This document shows positions 3,162-32,000 of a stretch of 32,000 nt of DNA, piece after piece (positions within the stretch are counted from its first letter, which is position 1; each line of letters starts with the position of its first letter). Location: NCBI RefSeq assembly GCF_000341395.1, contig NC_020305.1:1-32000 (forward strand), written 5' to 3'. A model generated the notes under the pieces. That model was not told the origin of the DNA and made no database searches. It worked only from the letters and a program-made list of their open reading frames with translations. The DNA comes from Desulfocapsa sulfexigens DSM 10523 (GTDB taxonomy: Bacteria; Desulfobacterota; Desulfobulbia; Desulfobulbales; Desulfocapsaceae). Made by a program: the position numbers and the translations under genes.

Positions 3162-3201
3162 AATTCACCTTCTGCCCTATGATTCATATGTCAATAATCA
3201 C

Positions 3202-3228
3202 AATAATGATACAAGTCATATAAATGAT
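3202..3228 (+). promoter_or_regulatory. Bipartite motif AATAATGATA-N7-TATAAATGAT (copy 2)
   Basis: The sequence AATAATGATAcaagtcaTATAAATGAT lies about 35 nt from the end of the homologous core of GC-rich element copy 1. Confidence 0.45.
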
Positions 3229-3262
3229 TTTTGAGACAGCTCCCCAAAGGACGGTACCAAGA

Positions 3263-3805: not shown

Positions 3806-4123
3806 ATGATATATATAAGAGGCACCTTTAATCGATCCATTGACAAGAAATTCAGACCTTCGATGCGGCAATCTGGACCTGATGTAACCCAGTAACAACC
3901 CGACAACCTAAATGAAACGTCCATACCCGTACGGAGCTGGGATATCCCCACCTGGCTACCCGACTAGATGATGTTACTCATAAAAAAACTGATATATCTC
4001 CCCATTTCCTATCTATTAACCACCCGTACACTCCTCTGTCATCAATTTCCAGCAAATTTTCAATCCCCGAAAACCACAATTACATGGATCATTTATACTT
4101 TTCAGATAACTACTTGTTATTTA

Positions 4124-4221: not shown

Positions 4222-4950
4222 TTGAAAATTGGCCTTTTACTCTGTGATCATGTACTCGAACCATTGAGAGAAGCTGCGAAGGGTGACTATGATTGTATGT
4301 ACGAAGCAATGGTCACCAAGGCTGCTCATCAGATACACTTAGCGGCCCCTCTTACTATCAAAAAATATTTTGTGATCGACGAATATTTCCCAGACTCACC
4401 TAATGATTGTGACGCATGGTTAGTAACATGCTCCCACCACGATGCAAATGAAGATAACCATTGGATTTCTCGGTTAAAATGTTTCGTTTTAGAAATAATA
4501 GAATACAGAAAGCCATTAGCTGGAATTTGCTTTGGCCATCAATTAATTTCATTAGTCCTTGGCGGGAAAGTGGCAAGACGAAATAAATGGATCGCTGGTG
4601 TACAGAAAGTTCACCTCAGGTCAAATCAATTCTCATCACAACCTAACATAAAACTATTAAGTCTTCATAGAGACGAGGTCACAGTCGCACCTCCAAATGC
4701 CAACGTTATTGCTTCATCTTCCCAAGTTCCGATAGCAATGCTATCCATACCACCTAATATCTTGACTTTTCAGCATCATATGGAGTACACAAAAAGGTAT
4801 TTAATAGCCCTAATTAATTCCAGAAAAGATCTTATAGGATCAGAAATCACCCAAATTGCACTAAATGGAATGAGTCAGGATTTGGATAGCAGTTATGCTG
4901 GAAGACTACTTTTGAAGTTCCTAGCCCAACACAGAAATTTAAATCAATAA
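4222..4950 (+). CDS. Class I glutamine amidotransferase-like protein (GATase1)
   Basis: Nucleophile elbow GICFGHQL and a later FQHHME (His/Glu) fit the GATase1 triad. The N-terminal MKIGLLLCDH is typical of the family. The start is TTG at 4222, with AAGAG about 8 nt upstream. Confidence 0.7.
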   Translation: MKIGLLLCDHVLEPLREAAKGDYDCMYEAMVTKAAHQIHLAAPLTIKKYFVIDEYFPDSPNDCDAWLVTCSHHDANEDNHWISRLKCFVLEIIEYRKPLAGICFGHQLISLVLGGKVARRNKWIAGVQKVHLRSNQFSSQPNIKLLSLHRDEVTVAPPNANVIASSSQVPIAMLSIPPNILTFQHHMEYTKRYLIALINSRKDLIGSEITQIALNGMSQDLDSSYAGRLLLKFLAQHRNLNQ

Positions 4951-4987
4951 AGACCATCAACACATTTAATAGATCGAAGGAGAAATC

Positions 4988-5926
4988 ATGCCTGCTAAGC
5001 CTATCGTTGCAATCAAAGTTGGAGATCACCTTATACAGCCATGGATTGACAGAATGACTCCATTGCTTCCGGAGTTTGACTTTATTTCATGGCATGATAA
5101 TCCTGACCAGGATCTTGTAGAATACGTTATTGGCTGGTGTCCTGATGCTAGGTGGATAAACGGCTTTCCAAATATTAAAGCTGTCGTTTCTGTGGGTTCG
5201 GGTGTAGATCATATCATTCACCTAGATGAATTAAAAGATACTATCCCAGTAATAAGGACAGTTTCAGACGATCTTATTCAAAGAGTGCGAGAGTTTGCAG
5301 CGCTTAGCGTTTTATCCTGGCATCGACAATTCCCTCAAATAATAGAAAATAATAGCATTAGAGAATGGAAAAGATTCTCAATGGAAACCTCTAGCTATTA
5401 TAAAGTTGGTGTAATGGGCTATGGTTCTATGGGCAAAGCCGTTGCGGAAACATTATCGTCACTTGGTTACAATGTTTCAGTTTGGGCAAATAGTAAGCGA
5501 GATCTTCCTTACAATTATTACTATGGACGGGACAGTCTTAGTAAATTCGCAAAAGATTTGGACATCCTGATCTGCTTACTCCCACTAACCAATGAAACAG
5601 AGAACATCCTCAATGAAGAATTAATGAGAAGTATGAATCAGGGAGGATGTGTTATTAATTTTGCAAGGGGAGCACATTTAGTAGATGATGACCTATTCAA
5701 AGTCTTAGATGATAGTCATTTATCAGCAGCCTACCTTGATGGATTTAGAGAAGAACCTCTTCCCTATAATTCCAAATTTCTTTCCCACGAGAAAGTAATC
5801 GTCACCTTTCATTCAGCAGGGTACATTTCACCTGACATTGGCCCTAAAGTTATAGCTGCAAATATCCAAAAGTTTGAGCGTAATGAAACGCCATGGCCTA
5901 TGTATAATAGAGAAAAAGGATTCTAA
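4988..5926 (+). CDS. D-isomer-specific 2-hydroxyacid dehydrogenase (GhrA-like)
   Basis: NAD-binding fold GVMGYGSMGKAVAETLSSLGYNV, the INFARGAHLVDDDL segment, LDGFREEPLP and a C-terminal H fit the family. AAGGAG precedes the ATG. Confidence 0.75.
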   Translation: MPAKPIVAIKVGDHLIQPWIDRMTPLLPEFDFISWHDNPDQDLVEYVIGWCPDARWINGFPNIKAVVSVGSGVDHIIHLDELKDTIPVIRTVSDDLIQRVREFAALSVLSWHRQFPQIIENNSIREWKRFSMETSSYYKVGVMGYGSMGKAVAETLSSLGYNVSVWANSKRDLPYNYYYGRDSLSKFAKDLDILICLLPLTNETENILNEELMRSMNQGGCVINFARGAHLVDDDLFKVLDDSHLSAAYLDGFREEPLPYNSKFLSHEKVIVTFHSAGYISPDIGPKVIAANIQKFERNETPWPMYNREKGF

Positions 5927-5927
5927 T

Positions 5928-6833
5928 ATGGCTAATTGGCAGCTTCTAGTCCAAGCCCCTAGTACAGGTTTTCTACTTTCAGTTGTTGGAGTCGCTATAA
6001 GCCTTATTGGAACAACCGTAGGTATCTATACATTACTAAAGGTAAAAAAAGTAGTAAAGGCCCAGATTGAGGAGAGAAAGCTAACGCAAGAGTTGCTTGA
6101 TGTAGATCAAATAGAGAAAGATCTAAGACGAGTTGTTTCTAAACTAATGCAGGTTAATGACCACGACTCGGTTTCGCTCGCTAACGCACTCTCACAACGT
6201 TTGGGGGCAATCCAGGGTACAAGGAGAGTAATTGATCATGGTGCATCAGCTTGCGGTTGTGCATCGGGCGATGCTGTTTCCATTAAAACTGGTTTTTTCT
6301 GTTCGACACATGTTGATGATTTCATAGAACAAAGCACCTCTCGTATTGACCTCATGACTGGTAGTACAAGGCTAATAGCAGGGTATTTTACTATGGACAA
6401 GATCAAACAGGCATGTGAACGTGGTGTCAAGGTCCGGATAGTTGGGCTATCCCCCGAGGCACCTGATGATATTTTATTAGATGCAGCAAAAACTGTCTCA
6501 AAGCCAGCCCCTGAAACAGCCGAAGACTATCGTAACCTTATAAAGGCAAACCACAACGAAATTAGCAAGGTCGTAAACTCTTGGCCTGCACAAACAAAAG
6601 AACGATTTGAATACCGGGAGAATTTTGGTGTCCCCAGGGTATCTATTGCAAAATCAGATGATGTAATATGCTTAGGTTTCTTACAATTGTTTAGAGATGC
6701 CCAGCCTGAAAAAATCAACGATAGGCAATACATCAAGATTCCCCAAGATTCAGAGTTGGGAAGTGTAGTAATGAAACACTTTGAGCAGGGTTGGAGTGAA
6801 AGTAAGAAAATCATACCAGCAAAAAGCGGATAA
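5928..6833 (+). CDS. Membrane-anchored protein: N-terminal TM helix, coiled-coil, and a possible HKD-less PLD-like C-terminal domain
   Basis: The ATG at 5928 follows the upstream stop (5924-5926) by 1 nt, so I prefer it to the track start at 5874. The TM segment is FLLSVVGVAISLIGTTVGIYTLL. C-terminal ..RIDLMTGS..GVKVRIVGL..VSIAKSDDVICLGF resembles PLD-fold strands, but no His-x-Lys motif is present. The domain call is tentative. Confidence 0.5.
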   Translation: MANWQLLVQAPSTGFLLSVVGVAISLIGTTVGIYTLLKVKKVVKAQIEERKLTQELLDVDQIEKDLRRVVSKLMQVNDHDSVSLANALSQRLGAIQGTRRVIDHGASACGCASGDAVSIKTGFFCSTHVDDFIEQSTSRIDLMTGSTRLIAGYFTMDKIKQACERGVKVRIVGLSPEAPDDILLDAAKTVSKPAPETAEDYRNLIKANHNEISKVVNSWPAQTKERFEYRENFGVPRVSIAKSDDVICLGFLQLFRDAQPEKINDRQYIKIPQDSELGSVVMKHFEQGWSESKKIIPAKSG

Positions 6834-6878
6834 CATAAATATTTCCTGTGGTTCTTCGCACTTTCTGAGGACAACATC

Positions 6879-7808
6879 ATGGCCAGTTTTGCATTTTTCT
6901 TGGATCCGCTTGATACTTTATCCTTAGACAAGGATTCAACCTTACAGATAATAAAGCAAGGATATTTAAAAGGTCATGATGTCGCCGTATTTCATGATAA
7001 GGATCTAATAGTCCGAGATGGTGCTGTTATTATCAACTCAAGAATTATTGATTTTACAGCAGAAACACTCTCGGCACAGGTTGATTGCAAAAAAGATATT
7101 ACTGACTTCGATATACTTTTTGTTCGCAGGGACCCACCAGTAACCATTGAATTCTACACTAGTTTAAGCATACTCTCATCAATCGAAGCTAATATCCCCT
7201 GTATAAACTCTCCTTCTTCTATTTTAACCTTTCCCGAAAAAATTGGGCCTACCACCTTTAAACAACTACACCCTCCAACATTAATTTCCAGTAATCTTTC
7301 CGAAATCTATGACTTTAAAAAAGAACATGGAGCTGTCGTAGTAAAACCGTTATACAATTACTGTGGAAATGGGGTTTATATTAGTTTACAAAATGATCGA
7401 AATTTCAACTCTATCCTCTCACTGTTCAAAATGAACAGTAATACGCCTATATTATTGCAGAAATTCATAGAAGACGTTTCAGACGGCGACAGACGGATCA
7501 TAATGCTAGGTGGTGAACCCGTAGGTGCCATAAACCGTAAGGCAAGCCCCAATGATTTTAGATGCAATATGTTTGCTGGTGGAACCCCAACACTTCATAA
7601 CCTATCGTCGACCGAATTAGAAATGTGTGCCCAAATAAGCCCGATACTGACTGAAAGAGGTCTACATCTAGTTGGAATTGATATTATTGGCAACTATATA
7701 ACAGAAATTAATACAACCGCACCTACAGGTATATTTCAAATTGCCGACCTTGGTGGCCCGAATCTATGTGCTACAATAATTGACTACGCAGAAACGCTAA
7801 TAAAATGA
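6879..7808 (+). CDS. Glutathione-synthetase-family ATP-grasp ligase (GshB-like)
   Basis: Collinear with prokaryotic GshB as I recall it: FFLDPLDTLSLDKDST (N-terminal domain), FVRRDPP, VVVKPLYNYCGNGV, LLQKFIEDVSDGDRRIIMLGGEP, FRCNMFAGG, LVGIDIIGNYITEINTTAPTG. Confidence 0.75.
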   Translation: MASFAFFLDPLDTLSLDKDSTLQIIKQGYLKGHDVAVFHDKDLIVRDGAVIINSRIIDFTAETLSAQVDCKKDITDFDILFVRRDPPVTIEFYTSLSILSSIEANIPCINSPSSILTFPEKIGPTTFKQLHPPTLISSNLSEIYDFKKEHGAVVVKPLYNYCGNGVYISLQNDRNFNSILSLFKMNSNTPILLQKFIEDVSDGDRRIIMLGGEPVGAINRKASPNDFRCNMFAGGTPTLHNLSSTELEMCAQISPILTERGLHLVGIDIIGNYITEINTTAPTGIFQIADLGGPNLCATIIDYAETLIK

Positions 7809-8875
7809 GCTATCCAACAAATACATCAGACATTGAGGTTCCATTTCTCAAAATTTCAGGCTCTCCCAAAGAAATGGGCCTAACTCATGGAGAAACATAT
7901 CGTAATTTAATAGGAACTCTCTTCGAAATACGCCATGAATTACTCTTAAAAGGTGCCAAAGGATCTGATGAAAATAAAATTGAAGACATAGCGTATTCTT
8001 TCTGGAAATATATCAGCAATTTTGACAAGCCCTTAGCAATAGAATTGGAATCAACAGCCAAAGCAGCGAATATTCTTCCATGGAAGCTGGTTGTTGCAGG
8101 TGGTTTCACTGATCTTATGGATGCGCTTTCAACTACTATTCATCCAGATTATCATGAATGCACCGTTGCCATCGACCCTGCCAAAGGCTTCATCGCTGGA
8201 ACATGGGACAGCCACCCCGAAGCAGGAGAAGCACTAATCCTGTTAGAACGACACCCGAATAACGGCCCTGCAACTCTAGCCCTCACAACAGCTGGCTGGC
8301 CATGTCAACAAGGCCTCAATAGTTATGGTGTTGGATTTGCGATTACCAATCTCACCCCAAACAAATCTTCAAAACATGGCCTAGTTTATATTGCTGCTAA
8401 TGCTTTCTTAGGAACAGCACAAAGTACATCTCACATCTTAAACCAGCTAAAAACAGAAACTTATTGCTCAGGCCATTCTTACATTGTTCTTGATAGAACT
8501 GGATCTGGTGCAATTATGGAAACAACCAACACCACAACTAATATTTTACAAATTAACTCTCTCACCACCAAGGCTAATCATTACCTATCTGGGCCACAAA
8601 GCATTGATAACAACAGTAATTATCTCTACTATGACTACAGTATTTCACGTGAAAAGGAATTACATGAGAACATATCCCAAATGGCTAATGCACAAGATTT
8701 TCCTAGTTGCCTCTTTAATTCTCAGAAAGTCAATCGTACTGATAGTTCTCAGGTAGCTATCACTTGCGCACATTTTCTAATTTCGGTAATCGATAATACG
8801 ATTTGGTACGCAAAAGGCCCTGCTCTTCCTCCTCTAAAATATCAGATGCTATCAAAAACATTAAGTGACGAGTAA
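7805..8875 (+). CDS. Peptidase C45 / acyl-CoA:6-APA acyltransferase-like Ntn hydrolase
   Basis: N-terminal FLKISGSPKEMGLTHGE, the candidate nucleophile context HECTVAI, then GTWDS and the ...GHSYIVLDRTG... core are typical of the C45 family. The start overlaps the upstream stop (ATGA at 7805-7808). Confidence 0.65.
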   Translation: MSYPTNTSDIEVPFLKISGSPKEMGLTHGETYRNLIGTLFEIRHELLLKGAKGSDENKIEDIAYSFWKYISNFDKPLAIELESTAKAANILPWKLVVAGGFTDLMDALSTTIHPDYHECTVAIDPAKGFIAGTWDSHPEAGEALILLERHPNNGPATLALTTAGWPCQQGLNSYGVGFAITNLTPNKSSKHGLVYIAANAFLGTAQSTSHILNQLKTETYCSGHSYIVLDRTGSGAIMETTNTTTNILQINSLTTKANHYLSGPQSIDNNSNYLYYDYSISREKELHENISQMANAQDFPSCLFNSQKVNRTDSSQVAITCAHFLISVIDNTIWYAKGPALPPLKYQMLSKTLSDE

Positions 8876-8876
8876 A

Positions 8877-10559
8877 ATGAAAATAGCAATTATATTCCCA
8901 CCAATTTTTGACCCTTCAATGCCATACTTGGCACCTTTTCAGCTGAAATCTTACATAAAAAAGCGTAGACCTTCATGTGAAATAGATGTCTGCGACCTAA
9001 ACATTCTTTTCTTTAATAGCATTGTAAATAACCCATACAAAAATTTTAACTACAGTTTAAACAATACCTCGTCATATGAATCAATTATTACATGTGAAAG
9101 CAGTATCACAAGCGCGTTATCTAATTGGTCTCAAACCCATGGCGTTGAAATAACAAGACAAAGTGCTGACTATTTTTTTGATACCAGCAATTCTGAAGGC
9201 TATGAATCATTTTTAGAAAATACGACACCATTTGAAAACTACCTAAGCAACCTTATAATCAATCATATTGACATTCCAAAATATGATCTTTTCTTCTTCT
9301 CTATTACTTCTTATGAACAGCTCCTCCCCTCTTTAATCCTGTCTAAAATTGTAAAGTCGATGAACAAAACGACGAATATTTGCCTTGGGGGAAATATTAT
9401 ATCAAGAATTTTCAAAGGGCTCCTTAATAGTCCCCTGCTAACTTCTATTGATTTCCTTGTCATTAAAGAAGGAGAACTACCTAGCGTAAATCTTGTCGAT
9501 TATCTATCAAATCGTAAGCCTGGTAACCTAACCAATAGTCTCATTGAAGTTTCAACCAAAAAAGTTATCGACAGAACTCAGAAATCTAAAATTTTTGAAA
9601 TAGACCAAATTCCTACTATTGAATTTAACGAAGAAGAGTTAGGCTTATATTTCTCACCTGAACCTGTGATACCAATTTCATTGGCTAGGGGTTGCAGCTG
9701 GGGAAAGTGTTCATATTGCGGCATTCACACGGTATGGGGTTCCGGATATCGAACAAAGCTCCCCATTAAACTTGCTAATGAAATTGAGAATCACAAAAGA
9801 AGGTATTCAACTAATAATTTCCGCTTAATTGACGAATCTCCTGCAATCAAAGACCTACTTAAACTCTCCGACGAACTAATCAGTAAAAACCTTGAAGTCA
9901 ACATCGAAACTTATTTAAACCTAAGCTCAGCACTTTCAGATCGAGAAACAACAAATACACTTTACGAAGCAGGATTCAACCAGCTATTTCTTGGAATTGA
10001 AAGTTTGAACAAGGAATTATTGACAGAAATTGGTAAATCCATAAATCACCCCAACCGGTATGCTGATTTACTTGAAAGTACACACGAAGCAGGGATATCA
10101 AACTATTCCTTCCTTATGGTTGGCCTACCTAATGATTCAATCAATAATGAATTAGAAGTTGAGAAGTTTGTACTTTCAAATAGTGACATTGATACAATAG
10201 CTATTTCAAGCTTTATACCACTCAGCAACTCACCAATGTATTCAGACATCAGCTTTCAATCCAAACACGGTATCAAGTTTACACCCAGGGGGCCATTGAC
10301 AACTAGGTGTGATTACAAAACAAATAACAGAGACGTCAGTGAAGAAACCAATAATAGAGCCAAGGCAATGGCTAATCGGATCTTCATAGGACGAAGAGAT
10401 CTCTGCCTCTCTAGCAATATCCCCTATGAATCCCGGTTTTATTTAATCAATAAATTTGGAAACAATTGCTTTAAGGACTTAGCAAAAGCCACCAGTTTCA
10501 GTTTTAATGAACCTCTGATAAGTACAGAGCTAGACGGCAGGCTTACTGGCCTAAAATAA
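8877..10559 (+). CDS. B12-binding-domain radical SAM protein
   Basis: The N-terminal MKIAIIFPP... is a Rossmann-like B12-type domain. The cluster motif ARGCSWGKCSYCG is followed by LFLGIESLN and SFLMVGLP, which are characteristic of radical SAM cores. The ATG at 8877 lies 1 nt after the upstream stop, so I prefer it to the GTG at 8865. Confidence 0.7.
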   Translation: MKIAIIFPPIFDPSMPYLAPFQLKSYIKKRRPSCEIDVCDLNILFFNSIVNNPYKNFNYSLNNTSSYESIITCESSITSALSNWSQTHGVEITRQSADYFFDTSNSEGYESFLENTTPFENYLSNLIINHIDIPKYDLFFFSITSYEQLLPSLILSKIVKSMNKTTNICLGGNIISRIFKGLLNSPLLTSIDFLVIKEGELPSVNLVDYLSNRKPGNLTNSLIEVSTKKVIDRTQKSKIFEIDQIPTIEFNEEELGLYFSPEPVIPISLARGCSWGKCSYCGIHTVWGSGYRTKLPIKLANEIENHKRRYSTNNFRLIDESPAIKDLLKLSDELISKNLEVNIETYLNLSSALSDRETTNTLYEAGFNQLFLGIESLNKELLTEIGKSINHPNRYADLLESTHEAGISNYSFLMVGLPNDSINNELEVEKFVLSNSDIDTIAISSFIPLSNSPMYSDISFQSKHGIKFTPRGPLTTRCDYKTNNRDVSEETNNRAKAMANRIFIGRRDLCLSSNIPYESRFYLINKFGNNCFKDLAKATSFSFNEPLISTELDGRLTGLK

Positions 10560-10852
10560 CAAGATAAATAAATCTACGGAAAATAGAGTTGTTAACTGTT
10601 CAGCCGCAATCGCATAGCACTATATTTTGTAAACAGGAGCGTTAGGATTACAATTTAAGTTTAAATCATGTGTTTCTTCCAAATAACCATTCTATTTTAC
10701 CTTTCGTTATCTTAAGGTAAGGTCTCTGCGTAGGCACTGTCTTCAAATCTAAATCATCCTTCATACAAGCCTTCCAATGCAATTGATATTCATCTTGATA
10801 TTCCACTCCTATTATGTTCTATGATTTATATGCCAACAATATCAACAATCAG

Positions 10853-10880
10853 AAGAATGATAAAAGGTGTATAAATGATA
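10853..10880 (+). promoter_or_regulatory. Bipartite motif AAGAATGATA-N7-TATAAATGATA (copy 3), overlapping the parA start codon
   Basis: In AAGAATGATAaaaggtgTATAAATGATA, the ATG inside the second half-site (10875-10877) is the ParA start. Confidence 0.5.
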
Positions 10881-11507
10881 GTGGCAATAGTTAACCAAAA
10901 AGGCGGCACGGGCAAAACCACGATAGCCGTCAACCTCGCTTTTGGAACCGCTAACGCAAAATATCCTACCGCCCTGGTCGATGCCGATACCCAGGCAACC
11001 TGTCTCCATTTTTATGGTAACCAGGACATAGAAAACCTTACCGTCTGTTCTGCCGGTGATGATGTCCGGGAAACGGTGCAACAGTTGAGCAAGGATCACC
11101 GCTTTGTTTTTATAGACACAGCCCCTCACGATAACGATTCCATGTACCTTGCCATGGTCACTGCTGATCTGATAATCATCCCCACCAGACCACGGCCCTT
11201 TGATCTTCACTCCTCGGAAAAGGTAGTGGAGATGCTCCGGAGTATCGAGAACGAGTATGGCTACACGCCCTGCTATTTCCTCCTCAATCAAGTAAAACAC
11301 GGTACCATTCTCGGCAGGGAAACCCTGGATTATATCCAGCACAACTTTGAACTGCCTGTCCTGAAAACCCAGATCCATGATTATGAGATTTACGGACAGG
11401 CGCCATTATCCGGACAATCCGTATTCCTCTACGCACCCAAGCATAAAGCAGCTCAAGAGTTGAGAAACCTGCTGCGAGAGATGAACAAAATATACAAATC
11501 TCAATAA
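10875..11507 (+). CDS. parA: ParA/Soj-type partition ATPase
   Basis: Deviant Walker A VNQKGGTGKTT, Walker A' VDADTQA, and Walker B VFIDTAP. The size (210 aa) fits type Ib ParA. Confidence 0.85.
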   Translation: MIVAIVNQKGGTGKTTIAVNLAFGTANAKYPTALVDADTQATCLHFYGNQDIENLTVCSAGDDVRETVQQLSKDHRFVFIDTAPHDNDSMYLAMVTADLIIIPTRPRPFDLHSSEKVVEMLRSIENEYGYTPCYFLLNQVKHGTILGRETLDYIQHNFELPVLKTQIHDYEIYGQAPLSGQSVFLYAPKHKAAQELRNLLREMNKIYKSQ

Positions 11508-12101: not shown

Positions 12102-14786
12102 TTACGACTCGTTCGTATCGTGTGCAGGTTTAAGATTAAACCTGCCATGATCGTGTTTGTAACACACTATTTCAGCACGTAATTGATCACCCGCATCAAA
12201 CTCTTCAAGTAATAACGCGCCAGCATCTTTAAGTTTATTAAATTCAGAAATGTGTATCAAGCCAGTGCCTTCAATACCAAATTCAACGAACAGGCCGTAT
12301 TTCTTTATCCCTGTTACCTGGCAGTCAACTACTCTACCAGGAGGATATTTTTTTTGTAATGTTTCCGTATCAGAAGTACTACTTGCCTTCTCTTTTAGTT
12401 TTTGGACATATTCTTTTGGTTCTGTAATATTGCAAAAATCATGAATTCTCTCTTCTGCTAATATAGCTTCAGGGTTTGCCAGATAACTATCTTTATATTC
12501 TTCTAAGTAAGATAGCAAAACTGAGGCATTATCAACTGATGAAGAGTATGACATGTGTCCTTTACCTTTACTCCCAATTAATCTATCTGCTATATCTTCC
12601 GCAATGCGTGCATCTTTAAACCATACATCTTCAGAACACGTTGAAAGGTAATCTAAATTTATGAGTAAATCCAGATGGACATGTCCAGATGGAGCAATTG
12701 AAATAAGGTCATCAATTGAAAATTGATTGATGTTTTGAGACTCAGTTGATATACATCCCGCCTTGATTAGTTCAGATATTTCATCAGATAACCTTCTTTC
12801 GTCATGCCCATATGCTACTAGTTCATTAATGATTGTCGCGGTTTTATGATACCCAAGCATCCCGCTTGGACCTTTAGTTCGATATTTTTTCTTTAACCAA
12901 GATAAAACTGACAACCTCGCAAAAGGATCTGGTATTATATCTTCTGGAAAAGATGCAAAAATATTTTTAACGAGGCTGTTAGCATCATTGTAGTACCTTC
13001 TGTTCCCGCGAAAAAGAACCCTGGTAACGATATGCTTTGGTAAAACATAATCACCCTTTGCATGCCTTATTTTAAATATCTGGTCTTCATGAATGTGTCC
13101 ACTTTTGCAAAAATCAAGAAAAATTTCCAACCCTTTTCTGATATTTGACCCAGCAATTCCTGAAACTATTCGCCTAAAAAGTGCATCATTTTGGAATAGT
13201 GAACGCAAAATACAAGCTAAATAATATGCTTGTTCAGATTGTGGATATTCAACTCGAAATCCATTTGGAAGAACATAGGACAATGAATTCTCTTTCTCCG
13301 TATCCATTTCAGCGAGAGCAAGTTTGACTCTCTTGTAAAGAACATCCATGAATAGTGGCGCATCAATTCGGAAGACTAAATCTTTGATGACTGTATCTAG
13401 TGGTGGTTCTGTTCTGTGGTGATCATATGTGGTGTCACGGATAGGTAGAAATACTAGACATCTACATGTTTTTTGGAGCCATTTCGCTACATCAAACATT
13501 AGCAATTGGTCGTCTCGATTCCGTTTGTCACTATTATCAAGTGACACAATTAATAACTTTTGTCTCTCAGCACAAAAATGGCGAATACATGCATTCATAG
13601 TTGCATCTGTATCACCTTGCACTCTGATCAACTCATCCGCCAAAAGGCTTTTATATTTGTCTGAATACTCGTCAAAATAGGCCCCAGCACCTTTTTTAAT
13701 TTTATTAAGCTCAACACTATATAATTTTTCTAAAAAAGGTAGACTGTCGAAATCAATATCAGCGTTATGGTTCCTGAATTCATTAATTATCTCATTCTCC
13801 AACCAAGAATAAATCACCCCTCTTGAAAGAGGTGCCAGATTCATATTAATGGATATCCACACAGTTGATTCTTTAATTTCTTCAGGTAAGGAGACTTCCC
13901 TTAGATAATCAATGAATGTTGATTTTCCGCTCCCAACACCTCCAATAAGAACTAATAATTGGTGGTGAAGTTTGTCGTTTGGTGTAAGAGTTCTCAACAG
14001 TTCACTTGGGTCTGTCGTTGAAATTTGATGAGCATCTGTGATACTTGGCGGATTTGCTGCGCGGATTATTTTGTCAATCGGATCTACATGTCTGAGGCGC
14101 CTTGTTGATTTTACATAAGCTTTCTTAACAATGTTTTTTCTTTCCTCCTCTGATTCAGGGTTGAACAAATGCCGATACTCAAGTGCCAAAGTATTACCAA
14201 ACGAATTTAGCTTCACTTCCTCATTTCTTACTGATCGTCCTCCTATAATGTTTGTAGGTCTCTTAAATTGAACATTGCCTCTCAATTTTTTTTGTTCTAC
14301 ATCAGAGAATTTTTCTAAATTTACCTTACAACCAAATGTAATCAATTTTGCGAGATTTGGATGAGATGCGTCTATTTCAGTATTAGAAATTTCTAGTAAT
14401 ATTGAACTGTCATCCCATGAGCCACAAATTGTACGTAATGAATTCGTTGCGATTAATTTCTGACAAGGATTAAAATGAGAAGGAAAAAGTGAATTTATTT
14501 CACCTGCATATAGCCTTGCTTCACGAATAGCCTCTTCAAGGTTGTTATCCTCTGGATGTTTTGCTTCAATTACAAGAACAGGAAGGCCGTGTAAGATAAC
14601 TATATAGTCCGGATAGTATAGTTTTTTTGCCCTTCCCTTGTCTATTTCAAGCTGCCTAATATCTGGCTTGGTTCTAAAGTCGCATGAAGAGTATCCTAAC
14701 CCAACAGGTTGACTATTAGTAAGTAGTGGAAGAATGAACTTCTGCTCGACATCGCTTTCATTCTTTATATCTTTCTCAGAAATCAT
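12102..14786 (-). CDS. 894-aa fusion: HsdR-N-type PD-(D/E)xK nuclease, P-loop NTPase, helical region, and C-terminal S1 (OB-fold) domain
   Basis: aa 10-95, ESDVEQKFILPLL...YPDYIVI...VLVIEAKHP...AIREARLYA, matches the type I restriction R-subunit N-terminal nuclease motif (D60, E74, K76). Walker A is LIGGVGSGKST (aa 280-290) and Walker B is LLIVSLDNSD (aa 411-420). aa 816-886, GRVVDCQVTGIKKYGLFVEFGIEGTGLIHISEF...GDQLRAEIV..., is a canonical S1 domain. Confidence 0.7.
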   Translation of the reverse strand: MISEKDIKNESDVEQKFILPLLTNSQPVGLGYSSCDFRTKPDIRQLEIDKGRAKKLYYPDYIVILHGLPVLVIEAKHPEDNNLEEAIREARLYAGEINSLFPSHFNPCQKLIATNSLRTICGSWDDSSILLEISNTEIDASHPNLAKLITFGCKVNLEKFSDVEQKKLRGNVQFKRPTNIIGGRSVRNEEVKLNSFGNTLALEYRHLFNPESEEERKNIVKKAYVKSTRRLRHVDPIDKIIRAANPPSITDAHQISTTDPSELLRTLTPNDKLHHQLLVLIGGVGSGKSTFIDYLREVSLPEEIKESTVWISINMNLAPLSRGVIYSWLENEIINEFRNHNADIDFDSLPFLEKLYSVELNKIKKGAGAYFDEYSDKYKSLLADELIRVQGDTDATMNACIRHFCAERQKLLIVSLDNSDKRNRDDQLLMFDVAKWLQKTCRCLVFLPIRDTTYDHHRTEPPLDTVIKDLVFRIDAPLFMDVLYKRVKLALAEMDTEKENSLSYVLPNGFRVEYPQSEQAYYLACILRSLFQNDALFRRIVSGIAGSNIRKGLEIFLDFCKSGHIHEDQIFKIRHAKGDYVLPKHIVTRVLFRGNRRYYNDANSLVKNIFASFPEDIIPDPFARLSVLSWLKKKYRTKGPSGMLGYHKTATIINELVAYGHDERRLSDEISELIKAGCISTESQNINQFSIDDLISIAPSGHVHLDLLINLDYLSTCSEDVWFKDARIAEDIADRLIGSKGKGHMSYSSSVDNASVLLSYLEEYKDSYLANPEAILAEERIHDFCNITEPKEYVQKLKEKASSTSDTETLQKKYPPGRVVDCQVTGIKKYGLFVEFGIEGTGLIHISEFNKLKDAGALLLEEFDAGDQLRAEIVCYKHDHGRFNLKPAHDTNES

Positions 14787-15009: not shown

Positions 15010-16305
15010 TTAAACATCCTCCCCCAGCCGCTCCCCAATAAAAACAGCTAACATCCCCTCAACCATTCCAGGGGTCACCCCTGCCTCATCATATCGTTTC
15101 AGCACAATCGTGTTGCCGGTCGCCACTAGGTTCTCGCGGAATTCAGCCAAAAAAGCTTCTCTCTCCCCTTCCCCCATGGATTCATACCGTGACATGGCAA
15201 GTTCCTGTTTCTGCCTTTTTTCGGCTTCCTGGCCATCTTCCTGCTGTTTTTTAGCTATCCTCTCCTGGATAACAGCTTTTTGCTGTACTTCATACTCCAC
15301 TTCAATAATTGATTCCTGCGGCTTCCATCCCTCTTCAATGGCCTTCCTGGCAATGCCTCCGACACTCTCCACCTTCTGGCCGCGCTTTCGCACCTTGTTT
15401 ATATATTCTCTTGCCATCTGCAAGGCCGCCTTAATGTGATCATGGCCGTACTCTTCCACCAGCTCCTGTGCTTTTTTCTCGGGAGAAATACCGAACTCCA
15501 TGATCAGAATATCTTCCATGGAGGTCTGCCCTCCCCTGTCACTTATTCCTGGAAGCTCCATCTGCTGATAGCGTTTATTTTTGCTCCAGGTAAACTCAAT
15601 CTCCTGTACCTTCCGTCCCTTCTTGATCTGGATAAAATCAAATTGAACATCGGTCTTGGCGGCTATATCCTTTTTGGCTGGCAACAGAACTTTTGATTTA
15701 AAATGACCAAACAGCCGGTATGTTCCTTCGGGAATGGCCAGATATTCACGGAGCCAGGAAAGCTCAACTCTTGCAGATTTGCGGTGATCCACATTGGCAA
15801 GCCCCTGGTTGTACTTGATGAACTGATAAATTCGCAGGGAGTAGTGATTTCTTAGACGAATGACCGCCCTTGCTTCTCCAAGGGTGGTGAAATTACCTTT
15901 CAGGGCAAGAAGAAACGGTTTGAGGGTCGGGTCAAAGCGTAATTCAACACACCCTTTCCCTGGGATAATAGAGGCGGAAGAGCACCAGGTGGTTTTGTCG
16001 ATCCGGCCATCTGCCTTTTCATCCGGATTGATCCAGCGAATAACCTTCTTCAGCAGCCCTTCTGTGGCCTCATCAAAACGAGCATAGAGATCATTGCGGC
16101 TGCCCCCCATGATATTGCAGAGTTCCCTGATGGATATCCGGTAGGGCTTGAAATCCTTATCACCTCGTTGGATCAGCGACAGCATATAGAGCACCAACCG
16201 CTGTTCGTTAATCTTCAATTGCGGCCATTGTGCTTCTATGAGCAGATCATTAGAGGCAGCTATCAGACCACCGCCCTCTTCCTTTTTGATCACCTCGTCA
16301 GTCAA
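15010..16305 (-). CDS. repA: Rep_3-family plasmid replication initiator
   Basis: SNDLIEAQWPQLKINEQRLVLYMLSLI...YRISIRELCNIMG...Y..F.EATEGLLKK is the typical Rep_3 N-terminal winged-helix signature. Iterons lie immediately upstream. A charged C-terminal extension is present. Confidence 0.8.
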   Translation of the reverse strand: MTDEVIKKEEGGGLIAASNDLLIEAQWPQLKINEQRLVLYMLSLIQRGDKDFKPYRISIRELCNIMGGSRNDLYARFDEATEGLLKKVIRWINPDEKADGRIDKTTWCSSASIIPGKGCVELRFDPTLKPFLLALKGNFTTLGEARAVIRLRNHYSLRIYQFIKYNQGLANVDHRKSARVELSWLREYLAIPEGTYRLFGHFKSKVLLPAKKDIAAKTDVQFDFIQIKKGRKVQEIEFTWSKNKRYQQMELPGISDRGGQTSMEDILIMEFGISPEKKAQELVEEYGHDHIKAALQMAREYINKVRKRGQKVESVGGIARKAIEEGWKPQESIIEVEYEVQQKAVIQERIAKKQQEDGQEAEKRQKQELAMSRYESMGEGEREAFLAEFRENLVATGNTIVLKRYDEAGVTPGMVEGMLAVFIGERLGEDV

Positions 16306-16412: not shown

Positions 16413-16708
16413 CATCCGAGAATGGTGATAGTTAAGAAAGAATCAGGGAGTAATTACCCTCCAATCATTACGCTAATGGGCACATCCGAGAATGGTGATA
16501 GTTCATCCGAATTCGGTGATAGTTGAGAAAGAGTAAAGCAAACAATGCCCCTGTAACCCTTACTGGCAAGTACTTTACTGCCTATGTGTTCTCAATATCC
16601 ATTCCCCCGAGAATAGTGATAGTTCATCCGAGAATGGTGATAATAACTCCGAGTTTAGTGATAGTTCATCCGAGTTTGGTGATAGTTAGTCCGAGAATGG
16701 TGATAGTT
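16413..16708. repeat. Iteron array (21-bp unit CATCCGAGAATGGTGATAGTT); probable oriV
   Basis: Copies at 16413-16433 and 16483-16503, then 16504-16524 in tandem. Five contiguous head-to-tail copies span 16604-16708, and a partial copy lies near 16389-16403. An AT-rich stretch follows at 16709-16800. The array is upstream of repA. Confidence 0.85.
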
Positions 16709-16857
16709 TGAGCAAAATATTCTTTATTTTTCATGTAATTACGTCACCTGTAATAACAACAAATAATACAAATATAAAAACAACAACATGGTCGGCAAGC
16801 CGCCCGCTCTTTTTGCTGTCTGTTTTTTTATTTTTATAAATCAACAAAGGAGAGACA

Positions 16858-22083: not shown

Positions 22084-23115
22084 ATGAAGGGTTTTAGAAA
22101 AATCACCAAACGGCTATTTGGTAGAAAAAGTGCCAATCAGGCTGATTTTGGCATCATCGACGGAGAGGTGACGGATAATTGCGGTTCTATAGGGGAAGCC
22201 GTTGCTTTTGAAACGGAATTGGCGGAGTTTGAAGGTAAAACTATTGGGAATCATAGCAATAGTTTTGGAAGAGAAGCGGAGTTCATTGAACCGGATCCAC
22301 CAGCCGACGAGTTTAGGGAGCCGGTTCCGCCTGCGGAGCAAATTAATCCCGATGAATGGGAGATACCGGAACCGTATCTTATCTATTTATCGGCCACCGG
22401 AAAGGCGAAAAGAACCATCCAGGAGTATCGCTGGGAATTGCTCTGGTGGAACAGGCAGACCGCTCTTGCAAGGCTCACCCTCCAGGACATGGAAGGGATC
22501 ATTCACAAGGTGCATCCTTCCACGGCCCGGCGAAAGGTTGCGGCAATCCGCTCTTTTGCGAAATGGCAGCTCCGGGAAGGTTCCGGACGGCTGCATGGTG
22601 AGGTAAGCCAGGTCATACTGCCAAAGACACCTTCCAGGATACCCAAGGACAGAGGAACGGATGAATTTATGGATTTGTCCAGGTGTGCCGTGGATCTGGT
22701 ACGGGCCGGAGACAGAAGAGGGGTGTGGATTGGGCTTATGGGCTGCTGCGGCCTGCGGATCTCCGAGATACAGACCGCGGAACCGGCACCGGGTAAAACG
22801 ATAAAGGTCATCGGGAAGGGAGACAAGGAAAGACAGATCCCTGCTCCGGCCTGGTTAATTGAAGCCCTGGGCTGTGACACATATAAGAGATGTTGGAAGA
22901 AGGGACGGCATCTGATCTGGTCTGAACTCAAAAAAATGGGGATCAGGAAACCCCACAGCCTGAGACACACCTTTGCCAGCGAATTACGAAGAAAGGGTTA
23001 TCCATTGGAAGAAATCAAAGTGTTGCTCGGACATAGCAAACTGGACACCACTATGATCTATGCCAACGTAGCCCTGCCAAACGATATCACATCGAGGTTG
23101 GGGGTGGAGCATTGA
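22084..23115 (+). CDS. Tyrosine recombinase (XerC/D / phage-integrase family) with an acidic N-terminal extension of about 100 aa
   Basis: Catalytic signature GLRISEI (Arg), HSLRHTFAS (His-x-x-Arg) and LGHSKLDTTMIYANV (His, Tyr). GGAGG lies 7 nt before the ATG. Confidence 0.85.
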   Translation: MKGFRKITKRLFGRKSANQADFGIIDGEVTDNCGSIGEAVAFETELAEFEGKTIGNHSNSFGREAEFIEPDPPADEFREPVPPAEQINPDEWEIPEPYLIYLSATGKAKRTIQEYRWELLWWNRQTALARLTLQDMEGIIHKVHPSTARRKVAAIRSFAKWQLREGSGRLHGEVSQVILPKTPSRIPKDRGTDEFMDLSRCAVDLVRAGDRRGVWIGLMGCCGLRISEIQTAEPAPGKTIKVIGKGDKERQIPAPAWLIEALGCDTYKRCWKKGRHLIWSELKKMGIRKPHSLRHTFASELRRKGYPLEEIKVLLGHSKLDTTMIYANVALPNDITSRLGVEH

Positions 23116-25980: not shown

Positions 25981-26072
25981 TTGGTGTGGATACGCTAGAT
26001 TCCCTTTGAACCGCTGCTGATGGATACAAACTTCCAGCTTCGACCATGTGCCCAGAAACGACATCTAGCCCA

Positions 26073-26128
26073 GATTCAGGTTAAAACTGTCACGGCTTTT
26101 ACCACTTCCCGCTTTAGTTAGATAGAGT
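26073..26128 (+). repeat. 56-nt fragment homologous to 28927-28982, which lies inside GC-rich element copy 2
   Basis: GATTCAGGTTAAAACTGTCACGGCTTTTACCACTTCCCGCTTTAGTTAGATAGAGT aligns with GATTCCGGTTAAAACTGTCACGGCTTTTGCATCTTCCCGCTTCAATTAAATGGAGT at 48/56 identical positions by hand. A weaker match lies upstream: TTCCAGCTTCG at 26032-26042 matches 28606-28616. Confidence 0.75.
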
Positions 26129-26159
26129 ATCCGGGCAACAAACAAATATCAGTCTTGGT

Positions 26160-27134: not shown

Positions 27135-28388
27135 ATGAAAAGACAGAATGCATTTTTTGAAGCACTTGGCGTTGATGCAACAAATAGTAAGGAGGTAACG
27201 CGACTTGCTGTAATTAGCGGCATTTCCGTTAAAAAACTTCGTTACTACAATGAACATCACCTGATGCCCTCTGGCACTGAGTTGGAGAAGATCATAGAAA
27301 CAACCAATGTAACTAAGTTGAAGCTTATGTTGAAACTTGGTTGTGTTGATCATAATGTTGCAGGAATGCTAAGTGAACATGCTGATGAAATTATTACTCT
27401 TTTTGAAAAAGAGAAAAAACAAACAAAAGCCAAAAAAAGATTACAGCCTGTCTTTGAAACAAATCTAGGAAAGCTTTATCACGGTAATTGTATTGAAGTC
27501 CTGATGCAGATGCCAAGCAATAGCGTTGATATGGTCTTTGCAGATCCACCGTTTAATCTGAACAAATTGTATCCCTCTAACATAAATGATGACTTAAAGG
27601 CTGAACAGTATCTGGATTGGTGTGAAGATTGGATAGACGAATGTGTGAGGGTCCTAAAGTTTGGCGGAGCGTTTTTATTATGGAATTTGCCAAAATGGAA
27701 TTCTGCTTTATCTAATTTTCTGAATGATAGATTAACTTTCAGGCATTGGATTGCTACCGACATCAAATATAGATTACCGATTAAAGGTAGACTGTATCCT
27801 GCACACTATTCTTTGCTGTATTATATAAACGGAGACAAGCCTAAAACATTCCATCCTGATAGGTTGCCAATGCAGGTATGTCCAAAATGTAGTGGTGATC
27901 TGAAAGATTATGGTGGCTATAAAGCAAAAATGAATCCAGCTGGAGTTAATATGTCTGATATCTGGATTGATATTCCACCAGTCCGTCATAATAAATATAA
28001 GCGTCGCGAGGGGGCCAACGAACTATCACTTAAACTGCTCGATAGAATAGTGGAAATGAGCACCGATGAGGGAGACATTGTCTTTGATCCTTTTGGTGGT
28101 TCAGGTACTACCTACATGGCCTCTGAATTGAAAAAACGTAAATGGATTGGGTGTGAAATCGGCCCAGTTGATGATATTGTTAACAGGTTTGACCACATCA
28201 ACGAAGAGAGGGAAATTCTAAATAATTATCGTGATAATTTAAATAGTTTATTTCCAAAGCAGATCTTAAAAAAAAGAGAAAAGGAAGGGCTATGGACCTG
28301 TGAATCTGTCAGAAGTAAAGCTGCATTAAAAATGTCTACAACTACCTACACAGAAAACTCCATTCCCCAGCTTGCAAAGACCAAATGA
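27135..28388 (+). CDS. Beta-class amino-DNA methyltransferase (N4-C or N6-A) with an N-terminal extension of about 110 aa
   Basis: Motif IV, VFADPPFN, precedes motif I, VFDPFGGSGTT, which is the beta permutation. The gene is divergent from C/R, as in the BamHI system. The N-terminal SKEVTRLAVISGISVKKLRYYN looks HTH-like. Confidence 0.8.
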   Translation: MKRQNAFFEALGVDATNSKEVTRLAVISGISVKKLRYYNEHHLMPSGTELEKIIETTNVTKLKLMLKLGCVDHNVAGMLSEHADEIITLFEKEKKQTKAKKRLQPVFETNLGKLYHGNCIEVLMQMPSNSVDMVFADPPFNLNKLYPSNINDDLKAEQYLDWCEDWIDECVRVLKFGGAFLLWNLPKWNSALSNFLNDRLTFRHWIATDIKYRLPIKGRLYPAHYSLLYYINGDKPKTFHPDRLPMQVCPKCSGDLKDYGGYKAKMNPAGVNMSDIWIDIPPVRHNKYKRREGANELSLKLLDRIVEMSTDEGDIVFDPFGGSGTTYMASELKKRKWIGCEIGPVDDIVNRFDHINEEREILNNYRDNLNSLFPKQILKKREKEGLWTCESVRSKAALKMSTTTYTENSIPQLAKTK

Positions 28389-28426
28389 TTACAGGTTATA
28401 CACAATCCGAGGTACGGAAAGTCCCC

Positions 28427-29144
28427 CCCGCACCCGCTCCGGCACGTCCTTTGCGTTTGTCTGCCCCGGTCGGCTGCAGCCCGGCAAACTGCCGCCGGTC
28501 TTCCGCTGCGCCCAGCTCAGCCAGCAAAGGCCCCGCCTCCACTCCTTCCGTGCAGGCTGCAGCGCTCCAGCTCCGCTTCAAGCCGGATCCCCGGTATCCC
28601 CAAGTTTCCAGCTTCGGCAGTGCACCTGGCAAAACAACACGCCAGGAGCCCTGCCTCTGTGCGTTCTGGTGGTAGACTCACCACCTGCTTAGTGTGGTGT
28701 CCACCGGCACATATTTTATAGCAGGCACAAAAAAATACTGCGCCCGCTATAAAAATGTGCGGAGGCCACACCCGATCCCGATCCGTGGCAGATCCAGGAT
28801 CCTTTCTCCGGCCACGCACCCAGAAACTACACCTGGGAGCCTGTCCGGTACCGGCTTTGGTGAGTAAGCCCAAGTCCTGCCTAAAGTGGTGTCCACCGCA
28901 AAAGCGCGGAGGCCACACCTGACACGGATTCCGGTTAAAACTGTCACGGCTTTTGCATCTTCCCGCTTCAATTAAATGGAGTTTCAGGGGCAAAAGCTCA
29001 CGCCAGTTTTACCGGTAAGTGTCCGCTTGCGCGAATCACAGTGGACGCGGGATACTGCCCCGCTTATGCCCCGGCCCGGTAAGTCAGATATGGGCAGGCA
29101 TTCCGGGCCGGGGTATCTTTGGCCTGCGGCGCATGATAGAGGAT
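28427..29144 (+). ncRNA. GC-rich ORF-free element, copy 2; candidate large structured RNA of unclassified family
   Basis: Collinear with the reverse complement of 3263-3805. Identical blocks include CCCGCACCCGCTCCGGCACGTCCT (28427-28450), CCAGCTTCGGCAGTGCACCTGGC (28608-28630) and GCGGAGGCCACACCCGATCCCGA. It carries two hairpin-forming insertions (28707-28760 and 28935-29106) relative to copy 1. Confidence 0.5.
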
Positions 29145-29180
29145 CACTCCGGCCAGCACCGCCCCAGCCACCCGCCAGCA

Positions 29181-29305
29181 CAACCCCAAAACACAAACCG
29201 CCATAGCCCACCTGGTGCTGCAATGCAAGGTCGGTTGTCCAGTAGGGCACTCCACCTTGCATTGCAGCACCAGGCAGGCTTAAAGACATGGCGGTTTTGG
29301 GGTTG
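29181..29305. repeat. 125-nt composite hairpin (about 43 paired positions, including a perfect 21-bp stem)
   Basis: The perfect 21-bp stem is CCTGGTGCTGCAATGCAAGGT (29211-29231) with ACCTTGCATTGCAGCACCAGG (29254-29274). Outer helices are AGCC/GGCT, AAACCGCCAT (29195-29204) with ATGGCGGTTT (29288-29297), and CAACCCCA (29181-29188) with TGGGGTTG (29298-29305). Confidence 0.8.
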
Positions 29306-29487
29306 CACTGTCGGGTTTGGCTTAGGGGCTCTTGCTTCTCCCGGCCTCCGTTCTGAAAGTTTGGCGTTGCACGCTCTGAAAAAGACAGATACCTCCGGTG
29401 GGGGGTTCCCTCTCAGGTTTGGCCAAAGTCCGTGCCAGTTCCGCCTGTCCCAGGGTATGTTTTTACTGTTTAGTACGCACTGTTTCC

Positions 29488-29515
29488 TTGCAATATGCGC
29501 CCTGTTTGGTATAAT
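29488..29515 (+). promoter_or_regulatory. Near-consensus extended -10 promoter (TTGCAA-16-TGgTATAAT)
   Basis: TTGCAA at 29488-29493, a 16-nt spacer ending in TGG, then TATAAT at 29510-29515. It points into the A-depleted tract. Confidence 0.5.
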
Positions 29516-29544
29516 TATGTAAGCTAAAATATTTATTATATCAG

Positions 29545-29812
29545 GTGGTTTTATGGTTTCTTTCCCCTCCCGCACTTTGGCGCGTTGCTGGGCTGTTGCC
29601 TGTGGTGTCCCGGTTGCAGAGGCTGGGGCCGTTGTCTCCGGTCGCCCTGGGGCCTGGTCCTCGGTTCCCGGCCCTGCCGTCCAGGTTTCCTGCATGTTTT
29701 GCCATCGTTTGGGGCGGTGCGGCGGTTCACCTGGCGGTACCGGTTGCCGTTTCAAGCCCTCCCGCTGGTGGCCGGATCCGCGCTCCGGGCTGCCGGTTCA
29801 GCTCTCTCTTTT
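29545..29812 (+). other. Extremely A-depleted (G/T/C-only) non-coding tract ending in a T-run
   Basis: A hand count gives 12 A in 250 nt (29561-29810). All three plus-strand frames are therefore open, which explains track ORFs 29545..29844, 29553..29819 and 29585..29827. There are five CGGTT(G/C) copies, at 29611, 29662, 29723, 29741 and 29794. The tract ends GCTGCCGGTTCAGCTCTCTCTTTTTC. Confidence 0.7.
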
Positions 29813-29926
29813 TCAATAAAAAAGTAACGAAAAGGTGTAAATAAACCTGTACTTTGTGCGTCCTTTTATGTTAAAATTACATAAAGAGTAAGGGAAAGGC
29901 CCTTGCCACATATTTTTTTGTACAGA

Positions 29927-31179: not shown

Positions 31180-32000
31180 ATGACTCTCTTTCAAAAAGCA
31201 GAACGAAAAAAAGCAAAACTCCGGCTCTCAATCGACGGGCCGAGCGGATCCGGGAAAACCCACTCCGGTTTACTGGTGGCCGGTGGCCTGGTACCGGATG
31301 GAAAAATATTTTTAATTGATACTGAGCGCGACAGCGCAACCCTGGAAACCGGAAAGCCGGGCATTCCTGATTTTTTCCACGCCCCCCTTACCCCACCGTT
31401 TACCCCGGCAAAGTATCGGGAATACATCGAGGCCGCAACTACGGAAGGGGCGGACGTAATTATAATTGATTCACTCTCTCATGCCTGGTCAGGCTCCGGG
31501 GGCGTGCTGGACATGCACGACACCGCAAGCAAGGCACAGCGGGGCGGGAACAGCTGGGCCGCCTGGCGGGAAGTGACCCCGGAACACAACGCCCTGGTCG
31601 ATGCAATTTTACAGGCCCCCTGCCATATCGTTTGCACTATGCGGACAAAAACAGCATGGGAAGTGGTGGAAACCAGCAACGGCAAGAAGGCCCCGCAGAA
31701 AATAGGCCTCAAACCGGAACAGCGGGAAGGTATGGAATACGAGTTTACCCTTGTTCTGGATCTTGCCCTTGAAGGCCATATTGCAACGGCCAGCAAAGAC
31801 CGAACATCCCTTTTCGATGGAAAACACTTTGTGCCTGGTATCGGAACTGGTGAAGAGTTGGCCGAGTGGTTGAACACTGGCCGGGATCCGGAAGAGATCA
31901 GCGCAGCAGCTCTCAAAAAACTGAAAGCTGCTGTCTCCAAAATTAAGGCCGTGCCCCATCTGGAAAACTGGTGGAAGGCGCATAGACCCGAGGCCGACAG
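31180..32000 (+). CDS. AAA_24 / Sak4-like phage recombination ATPase; the 3' end lies outside the window
   Basis: My own translation from ATG 31180 reads MTLFQKAERKKAKLRLSIDGPSGSGKTHSGLL...VIIIDSLSHAWSG...CTMRTKTAW...EYEFTLVLDL...ASKDRTSLF..., open to the window end. Walker A is GPSGSGKT and Walker B is IIIDS. It is not in the ORF track because it has no stop. The antisense ORFs 31479..31940 and 31609..31983 are discounted. Confidence 0.75.
   Translation, partial: MTLFQKAERKKAKLRLSIDGPSGSGKTHSGLLVAGGLVPDGKIFLIDTERDSATLETGKPGIPDFFHAPLTPPFTPAKYREYIEAATTEGADVIIIDSLSHAWSGSGGVLDMHDTASKAQRGGNSWAAWREVTPEHNALVDAILQAPCHIVCTMRTKTAWEVVETSNGKKAPQKIGLKPEQREGMEYEFTLVLDLALEGHIATASKDRTSLFDGKHFVPGIGTGEELAEWLNTGRDPEEISAAALKKLKAAVSKIKAVPHLENWWKAHRPEAD

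Follow-up and report, generated by a model that had tools for sequence, protein, structure and literature searches.

A non-coding, hairpin-dense repeat family with strand-asymmetric stem constraint on a Desulfocapsa sulfexigens plasmid

Non-coding RNAs of more than 500 nt are rare in bacteria, and every new family has opened new biology. Three groups of described systems stand closest to the locus reported here: the large RNAs ROOL, GOLLD and OLE; the repeats of the REP/BIME, ERIC, Correia and MITE types; and the integron attC sites together with the Frpo/ssi single-stranded DNA promoters. ROOL and GOLLD are often carried on mobile replicons, as is the present element. It also resembles the large RNAs in its size (0.5-0.8 kb), its many hairpins, a G+C content above that of its host and the lack of coding capacity, and differs from them in having no Rfam match, a far narrower distribution, two homologous tandem units and weak covariation. 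With the REP-like repeats and MITEs it shares multi-copy, intergenic occurrence in either orientation, hairpins, decayed members and a presence at rearrangement breakpoints. However, it is three to twenty times longer than these and GC-rich, its stems show strand-asymmetric wobble conservation, and it has neither shared terminal inverted repeats nor target duplications that we could see. The likeness to attC sites and Frpo/ssi promoters lies in strand-specific hairpins, conserved unpaired bases, a fixed orientation downstream of genes and an apparent folded strand that is the complement of the strand coding for the upstream gene. Frpo, unlike the element, consists of one long hairpin, and we saw no conjugation genes in the window, by which we mean the whole stretch of 32,000 nucleotides that was analyzed.

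A protein-coding gene or pseudogene was ruled out by stops in six frames and frame-shifting indels; each frame has stops or gives unrelated translations across copies, no open frame is conserved, and the database relatives found at the protein level were only spurious ORF calls from the element itself. Rfam 15, whose families include ROOL, GOLLD, OLE, HEARO, group I and group II introns, ribozymes and Desulfotalea-1, gave 0 matches at gathering thresholds over the whole window. Relaxing the threshold to E<=10 over 28300-29500 yielded chance-level miRNA-type matches only, and at E<=1 nothing relevant appeared in copies L005-L008 at full length. A group II intron or other ribozyme was rejected on the absence of an Rfam match. 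An integron attC site was rejected as well: the RYYYAAC/GTTRRRY core sites are absent at the boundaries by inspection, and the element measures about 600 nt against 57-141 nt for attC. The tyrosine recombinase of the plasmid scores 42.6 bits against the integron integrase model TIGR02249, whose cut-off is 265. As to MITEs, there is no end-to-end inverted repeat in copy 2 or in the homologous copy L011b, a 15-nt repeat of 80% identity is present in L006 only, and no target duplications were seen at the copies. The element belongs to no described family among those tested. The repeats form a genuine family, dense in hairpins and without coding function, whose stems are under a strand-specific constraint. 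What holds of the interpretation in the first-pass annotation of this DNA is that the element is non-coding, densely and non-randomly structured, modular and constrained by strand in the way expected of a folded single strand.

The plasmid and its copies of the repeat

The window is part of a plasmid. Its ParA is 100% identical to a protein that NCBI names as a plasmid protein of Desulfocapsa sulfexigens DSM 10523, and the D. sulfexigens plasmid has been described as a 36,751-bp replicon of 44% G+C (PMC3739170). A Rep3 initiator gene (15010-16305, minus strand) lies beside seven 21-nt iterons of the CATCCGAGAATGGTGATAGTT type (16413-16729), a block that is likely to be the replication origin. 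The plasmid also carries parA (10875-11507), a primase gene, a gene for an Xer-like tyrosine recombinase (22084-23115) and a restriction-modification system of the BamHI type, in which the gene for the methyltransferase ends at 28388. An operon on the plus strand (4222-10559) encodes a class-I glutamine amidotransferase, a 2-hydroxyacid dehydrogenase, a glutathione-synthetase-like ATP-grasp enzyme, an AAT/NTN-hydrolase-like protein and a radical SAM enzyme, and may be a plasmid-borne cluster for small-molecule or peptide modification. On the minus strand, 12102-14786 encodes an 894-aa protein of unusual architecture, with an HsdR N-terminal nuclease-like domain and a C-terminal S1 RNA-binding domain. 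Near the end of the window, positions 31590-31622 repeat a 33-nt segment of parA (10970-11002) at 76% identity, which suggests a second parA-like gene running past the window end.

The copy on which the first-pass annotation centered, copy 2, occupies 28427-~29140, and was read there on the plus strand. Copy 1 (3270-3808) is inverted relative to copy 2 and was read on the minus strand. We refer to these as the proposed strand; as argued below, the folded strand is probably the opposite one, minus at copy 2 and plus at copy 1. Five inverted-repeat blocks, 87-92% complementary, link the two copies, which have a mean column identity of 76% and differ by many indels that are not multiples of three. 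The profile of the element matches copy 2 over 28564-29151 (E=7e-189). It also recovers copy 3 (26006-26158, minus strand; E=1e-21 and 4e-9), a decayed short form consisting of a single-unit remnant and the start of a 172-nt domain, which is flanked by a 95-aa ORF and the gene for the BamHI endonuclease. The core of the repeat is about 0.52 kb long, or 0.55-0.75 kb with leader and tail, and the G+C content of the repeats, about 58%, stands 14 points above the 44% of the plasmid; on the proposed strand, C exceeds G. A short-read assembly of this plasmid (L001; Logan SRR25712206_2338, 25,119 bp, equal to window 3515-28633) ends inside both copy 1 and copy 2, which indicates that the repeats break assemblies.

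Homologues and module history

Homologues were found by translating the element into pseudo-proteins and scanning these against genome and metagenome collections, and by a second route in which relatives of ParA served as bait for related plasmids. Nine further distinct copies were recovered beyond the window (11 sequences in the alignment). Four of them, L006, L008, L011b and L013, are full length and keep all modules and hairpins, and the L008 copy recurs in L011, L012 and L014. The contig L002 carries both L002_A (L002:10000-10548), which is 94-96% identical to copy 1, and a short form, L002_B. The copies in L005, L007 and L009 are truncated; that of L009 is chromosomal by its setting, with genes for aminoacyl-tRNA synthetases, among them pheS and pheT, nearby. 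Identity among copies is 75-88%, and their sources form a narrow clade, with ParA 90-92% identical to that of the window, so that statistical power is low.

Searches further afield returned no additional members. Plasmids fetched by more distant ParA bait (60-82% identity) held no copy of the element, blastn with copy 2 against plasmid and phage collections gave no match, and nothing was found in viral contigs with an exact 22-nt pattern and three degenerate scans. Single-ORF queries matched only ORF calls from the same element. A query that concatenated six ORFs into one pseudo-protein had no match among the best 8000 candidates; P0018, a 99%-identical ORF call, was found by other searches, and our guess is that the true relatives were absent from that list of 8000. 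From the copies in hand, the repeat family appears to be lineage-restricted, with members on plasmids of the Desulfocapsa type and, in at least one case, on a chromosome. In L011, two full-length copies in inverted orientation (L011:625-1223, plus strand, and L011:4448-5077, minus strand) enclose a resolvase gene and a RelB/YafQ toxin-antitoxin pair. After each copy come some 400 nt, more than 95% identical, that reach the start of a small gene; DUF7673 is the annotation of one of these two genes.

In the ancestral element a small leader hairpin precedes a tandem pair of homologous units; a 3' domain (about 190 nt) and a tail come after these. Within each unit, a linker joins a 13-pair hairpin, which has conserved 1x1 mismatches, to another hairpin that starts with GGTGT and finishes with ACACC. 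Aligned over 173 positions, the two units are 61% identical (z = 2.7 against shuffles) and have in common the motif GCACC...GGAGCC along with the mismatch-bearing hairpin; the short forms L002_B and copy 3 have one unit only. In copy 2 the conserved core, common to all homologues, spans 28600-29121, with the minus strand as the probable folded strand. Its first unit contains the hairpin 28616-28655 and a 52-nt hairpin at 28707-28760 closed by 28692-28702/28761-28771. The second unit contains the hairpin 28808-28848 and a hairpin at 28886-28919 that has been overwritten by one of the unit-1 type, and the 3' domain consists of a long hairpin (28929-29018) and the helix 29066-29079/29103-29116. 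Three modules occur together in the full-length copies: the 52-nt hairpin, a GTTGTCCG...CGGACAAC hairpin whose interior, some 55 nt long, is variable, and the 172-nt domain.

The ends of the element are less uniform. A GC-rich module of 173 nt (28427-28599, minus strand on the preferred orientation and 5' in the proposed one) is found only in the window copies and in L002_A; nhmmer matches it only in L002/L004 and at window 3807-3670. The outer edge of this module, at CCGCACCCGCTCC, is abrupt and falls on a synteny breakpoint, and the upstream flanks of copy 1 and L002_A are unrelated. On the other side, a tail made of TTGGCCTGCGGCGCATGATA and about 40 further nt (tail A; 29122-29181, minus strand) is shared by copies 1 and 2, L002_A, L002_B and L006, and a different tail B takes its place in L008, L011b and L013.

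Every motif and feature quoted in the first-pass annotation is found where it was placed; the homologues change how several of them are read. The 52-nt hairpin had been taken for an insertion into copy 2. It is present there, but also in seven of the nine copies that cover the position, so that copy 1 bears a deletion and copy 2 no insertion. The 172-nt domain with its bordering ATTCCGG repeats had likewise been described as an extra domain of copy 2. The domain occurs in L006, L008, L011b, L013 and L002_B, and partially in L005 and copy 3; it is ancestral rather than inserted, and the direct repeats thus mark a deletion in copy 1. An origin of this domain as an independent MITE was rejected: it was never found apart from the element. 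A third difference, a helix whose sequence is replaced while pairing is kept, is real but reflects a swap of paralogous modules and not compensatory evolution. The copy 2 hairpin 28876-28922 matches the unit-1 hairpin of copy 1 (3510-3556; 89%), and the copy 1 version of the unit-2 hairpin is the common one, found in seven of nine copies. In copy 2 and L002_B the second-unit hairpin was overwritten by the deleted form of the first-unit hairpin, and copy 1 is a derivative without two modules, the 52-nt hairpin and the 172-nt domain. More generally, the copies diverge by deletion between short repeats, loss of units and exchange of hairpins between units.

Stem constraint and the folded strand

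The predicted folding energy of the element falls well under that of shuffled sequence on both strands, with z between -4 and -11. For 28427-29300, z against dinucleotide shuffles is -11.4 on the plus strand and -9.3 on the minus strand; for L006 the two strands give -4.9 and -6.1. Across the four full-length copies the mean z is -4.1 on the proposed strand and -5.7 on the opposite one, with structure conservation indices of 0.85 and 0.90, respectively; the raw gap in folding energy between strands is mostly a matter of base composition. We compared the strands on a strand-symmetric set of pairs, defined as those predicted by single-sequence folding on both strands in at least half of the copies, a rule that yields 77 pairs in five hairpins. 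Paired columns evolve more slowly than columns elsewhere (0.24 vs 0.38 events per column, p=0.0015). Changes on both sides were seen at four pairs, a number matched by 1-2 of 500 shuffles, although two of the four come from the module swap and the 11 sequences belong to a narrow clade. Independent compensatory double changes number two to three, two in the 52-nt hairpin (L005, L011b) and one at columns 81/122. Two other helices were discarded. The long-range pairing CCTGTCTAG/AGACAGG of L006 is not kept in the window copies, and in the first consensus fold the 5' side of helix 12-17/273-279 varies without compensation.

Within the 77 pairs, the two strands behave differently. Standard pairs fill 96.2% of cells on the proposed strand and 98.7% on the opposite one. 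Pairs that vary on one side and still pair number 1 on the proposed strand against 12 on the opposite, pairs that depart from the structure only by unpaired cells 17 against 6, and further standard pair types 5 against 16. Among one-sided transitions, 11 give A·C on the proposed strand, which is G·U on the opposite strand, and a single one gives G·U there (binomial p=0.006). In unpaired columns the same two transition classes are seen 41 and 47 times (Fisher p=0.004); as there is no bias in these columns, mutational bias does not explain the 11:1 asymmetry. The conserved internal mismatches read as C·U and A·A on the proposed strand and as G·A and U·U on the opposite one. In a looser, automatically drawn set of 197 candidate pairs the asymmetry is gone (23 vs 29, p=0.49); given 43 non-wobble mismatch events, we regard that set as contaminated by spurious long-range pairs. 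Taken together, these results show a strand-asymmetric constraint on the stems and favor a structure formed by one single strand, the minus strand at copy 2 and the plus strand at copy 1.

This is the reverse of the strand call in the first-pass annotation, which had placed transcription on the plus strand at copy 2 and on the minus strand at copy 1, against the 11:1 ratio of one-sided transitions. The call relied on two small helices with G·U changes on the proposed strand. CGTGGC/GCCACG (28784-28789/28811-28816) is present, and corresponds to CGTGGT/GTCACG in copy 1. It is found in no consensus fold and no minimum-energy fold, however, and overlaps the better-supported 13-pair hairpin 28808-28848, which is predicted on both strands in most copies. 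GGTGGT/ACCACC (28668-28673/28680-28685) is also present in copy 2, but is broken in L008, L009 and L013 and hit by a deletion in L007, and so is not kept among homologues. G·U evidence from two copies alone can therefore indicate the wrong strand. If the minus strand is the folded one at copy 2, co-transcription with the methyltransferase gene, which had been suggested as a test, becomes less likely.

Flanking signals and competing explanations

Just beyond the 3' limit of copy 2 on the proposed strand, and outside the coordinates of the original finding, lies a long hairpin (29182-29306) preceded by an A-run and followed by a T-run. Its ATGGCGG leads into TTTTGGGG when the plus strand is read and into TTTGTGTTTTGGGG when the minus strand is read. 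Compared with L002:12400-12528, a sequence about 88% identical, its 48 pairs include nine changed on both sides with pairing kept and none broken. The hairpin has the GC-containing stem and T-run of an intrinsic terminator; it resembles these terminators further in its A- and T-runs and compensated pairing, and differs from them in an unusually long stem of 48 pairs. It looks like a bidirectional terminator, which would end plus-strand transcripts of copy 2 and block minus-strand ones arriving from the right. A terminator-like hairpin with a T-run also follows L002_B. Scans for promoters and terminators gave weak candidates only, and no convincing minus-strand promoter was found beside copy 2. 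On its plus strand, copy 1 lies behind a promoter- or operator-like block at 3173-3239.

We put at roughly 40% the probability that the element encodes a structured RNA on the opposite strand (minus at copy 2, plus at copy 1), its copies also driving plasmid rearrangement. The element would then specify an RNA, roughly 0.5-0.7 kb in length, that works by itself and is transcribed from this opposite strand. There, each robust hairpin would stay paired through G·U wobbles and carry G·A and U·U as its internal mismatches, and the repeats would in addition be substrates for the homologous recombination that reshuffles these plasmids. We infer that the folded strand is RNA rather than single-stranded DNA, and likewise infer the transcript ends and any cellular role. 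The more specific picture of a large (>0.5 kb), undescribed RNA made of two hairpin units and a 3' domain, encoded in inverted pairs on Desulfocapsaceae plasmids and on the strand opposite to neighboring genes, is somewhat unlikely to hold in full. A rival explanation is a selfish or recombinogenic DNA repeat that makes no RNA, whether MITE-, REP- or ERIC-like or a duplicated plasmid segment, its hairpins being inherited palindromes and any action occurring through folding of single-stranded DNA during replication or transfer. That is a serious possibility, if a doubtful one. It fits the presence of several copies on one replicon, in either orientation, some of them truncated, internally deleted or altered by exchange between units, and the truncated or decayed copies L005, L007, L009 and copy 3 resemble a decaying repeat family. 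Copies lie at synteny breakpoints and interrupt short-read assemblies, the duplicated block of L011 reaches more than 400 nt past the element and includes a gene, the distribution is narrow, and the identity between copies (75-88%) is no higher than neighboring genes would predict (ParA 90-92%, at the protein level). Folded single-stranded DNA, moreover, tolerates G·T wobbles too. What such a repeat accounts for less well is the 11:1 partition of wobble changes by strand beside unbiased unpaired columns, the slower evolution of stems, the lack of shared terminal inverted repeats and visible target duplications, and the excess of 14 points in G+C. Judged from coordinates, the lagging-strand template from the iteron origin would also be the proposed strand in both copies, not the strand that the wobbles favor.

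A structured RNA read from the proposed strand seems improbable. It would be an extended 3' UTR of the upstream gene, or the result of read-through from that gene, and would stop at the hairpin 29182-29306. By our reading of contexts, about eight of ten copies do lie 25-130 nt downstream of a co-directional gene, and the hairpin loops are A-rich on the proposed strand; both observations fit an RNA from that strand. So do the terminator-like hairpins with T-runs after copy 2 and L002_B, the plus-strand z of -11.4 and the two small helices that form G·U only there. Against it, the robust hairpins carry 11 A·C for one G·U on the proposed strand, 17 pairs depart from it by unpaired cells where six do so on the other, its internal mismatches would be C·U and A·A instead of G·A and U·U, and it has more C than G. 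Both favoring helices either conflict with a better-supported hairpin or lack conservation, and copy 1 and L013 have no co-directional gene upstream. A decayed, non-functional remnant of a different mobile element, for example an intron without its ORF, the end of a transposon or the attachment region of a prophage or plasmid, is very improbable. Several copies are indeed truncated or decayed, and the plasmid encodes a tyrosine recombinase (22084-23115). However, no intron, ribozyme or other Rfam family is matched even at E<=10, no recombinase, reverse transcriptase or transposase is consistently adjacent, and four full-length copies retain every module and hairpin.

Should the structured RNA from the opposite strand be borne out, it would add a new family to the small class of large bacterial RNAs of unknown function represented by ROOL, GOLLD and OLE. 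It would be a plasmid-borne case with tandem units from sulfur-disproportionating Desulfobulbales, and a tractable one, because DSM 10523 is in culture. Even without an RNA product, the repeat accounts for the mosaicism of this plasmid family and for the breaks in short-read assemblies.

Two further features of the plasmid were recorded near the repeats. A 67-nt repeat rich in ATGAT motifs occurs three times on the plus strand (1995-2061, 3173-3239 and 10815-10881). One copy stands ahead of an AP2-domain gene, one holds the start codon of parA and one points into copy 1; the repeat is probably a shared promoter, operator or centromere-like site. To the right of copy 2, the stretch 29300-29830 is GC-rich and has overlapping ORFs on both strands with no convincing gene. 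It is conserved in L002 up to about 29321, where the L002 contig ends. On the plus strand it carries, at 29488-29515, a strong sigma-70-like site whose -10 is extended.
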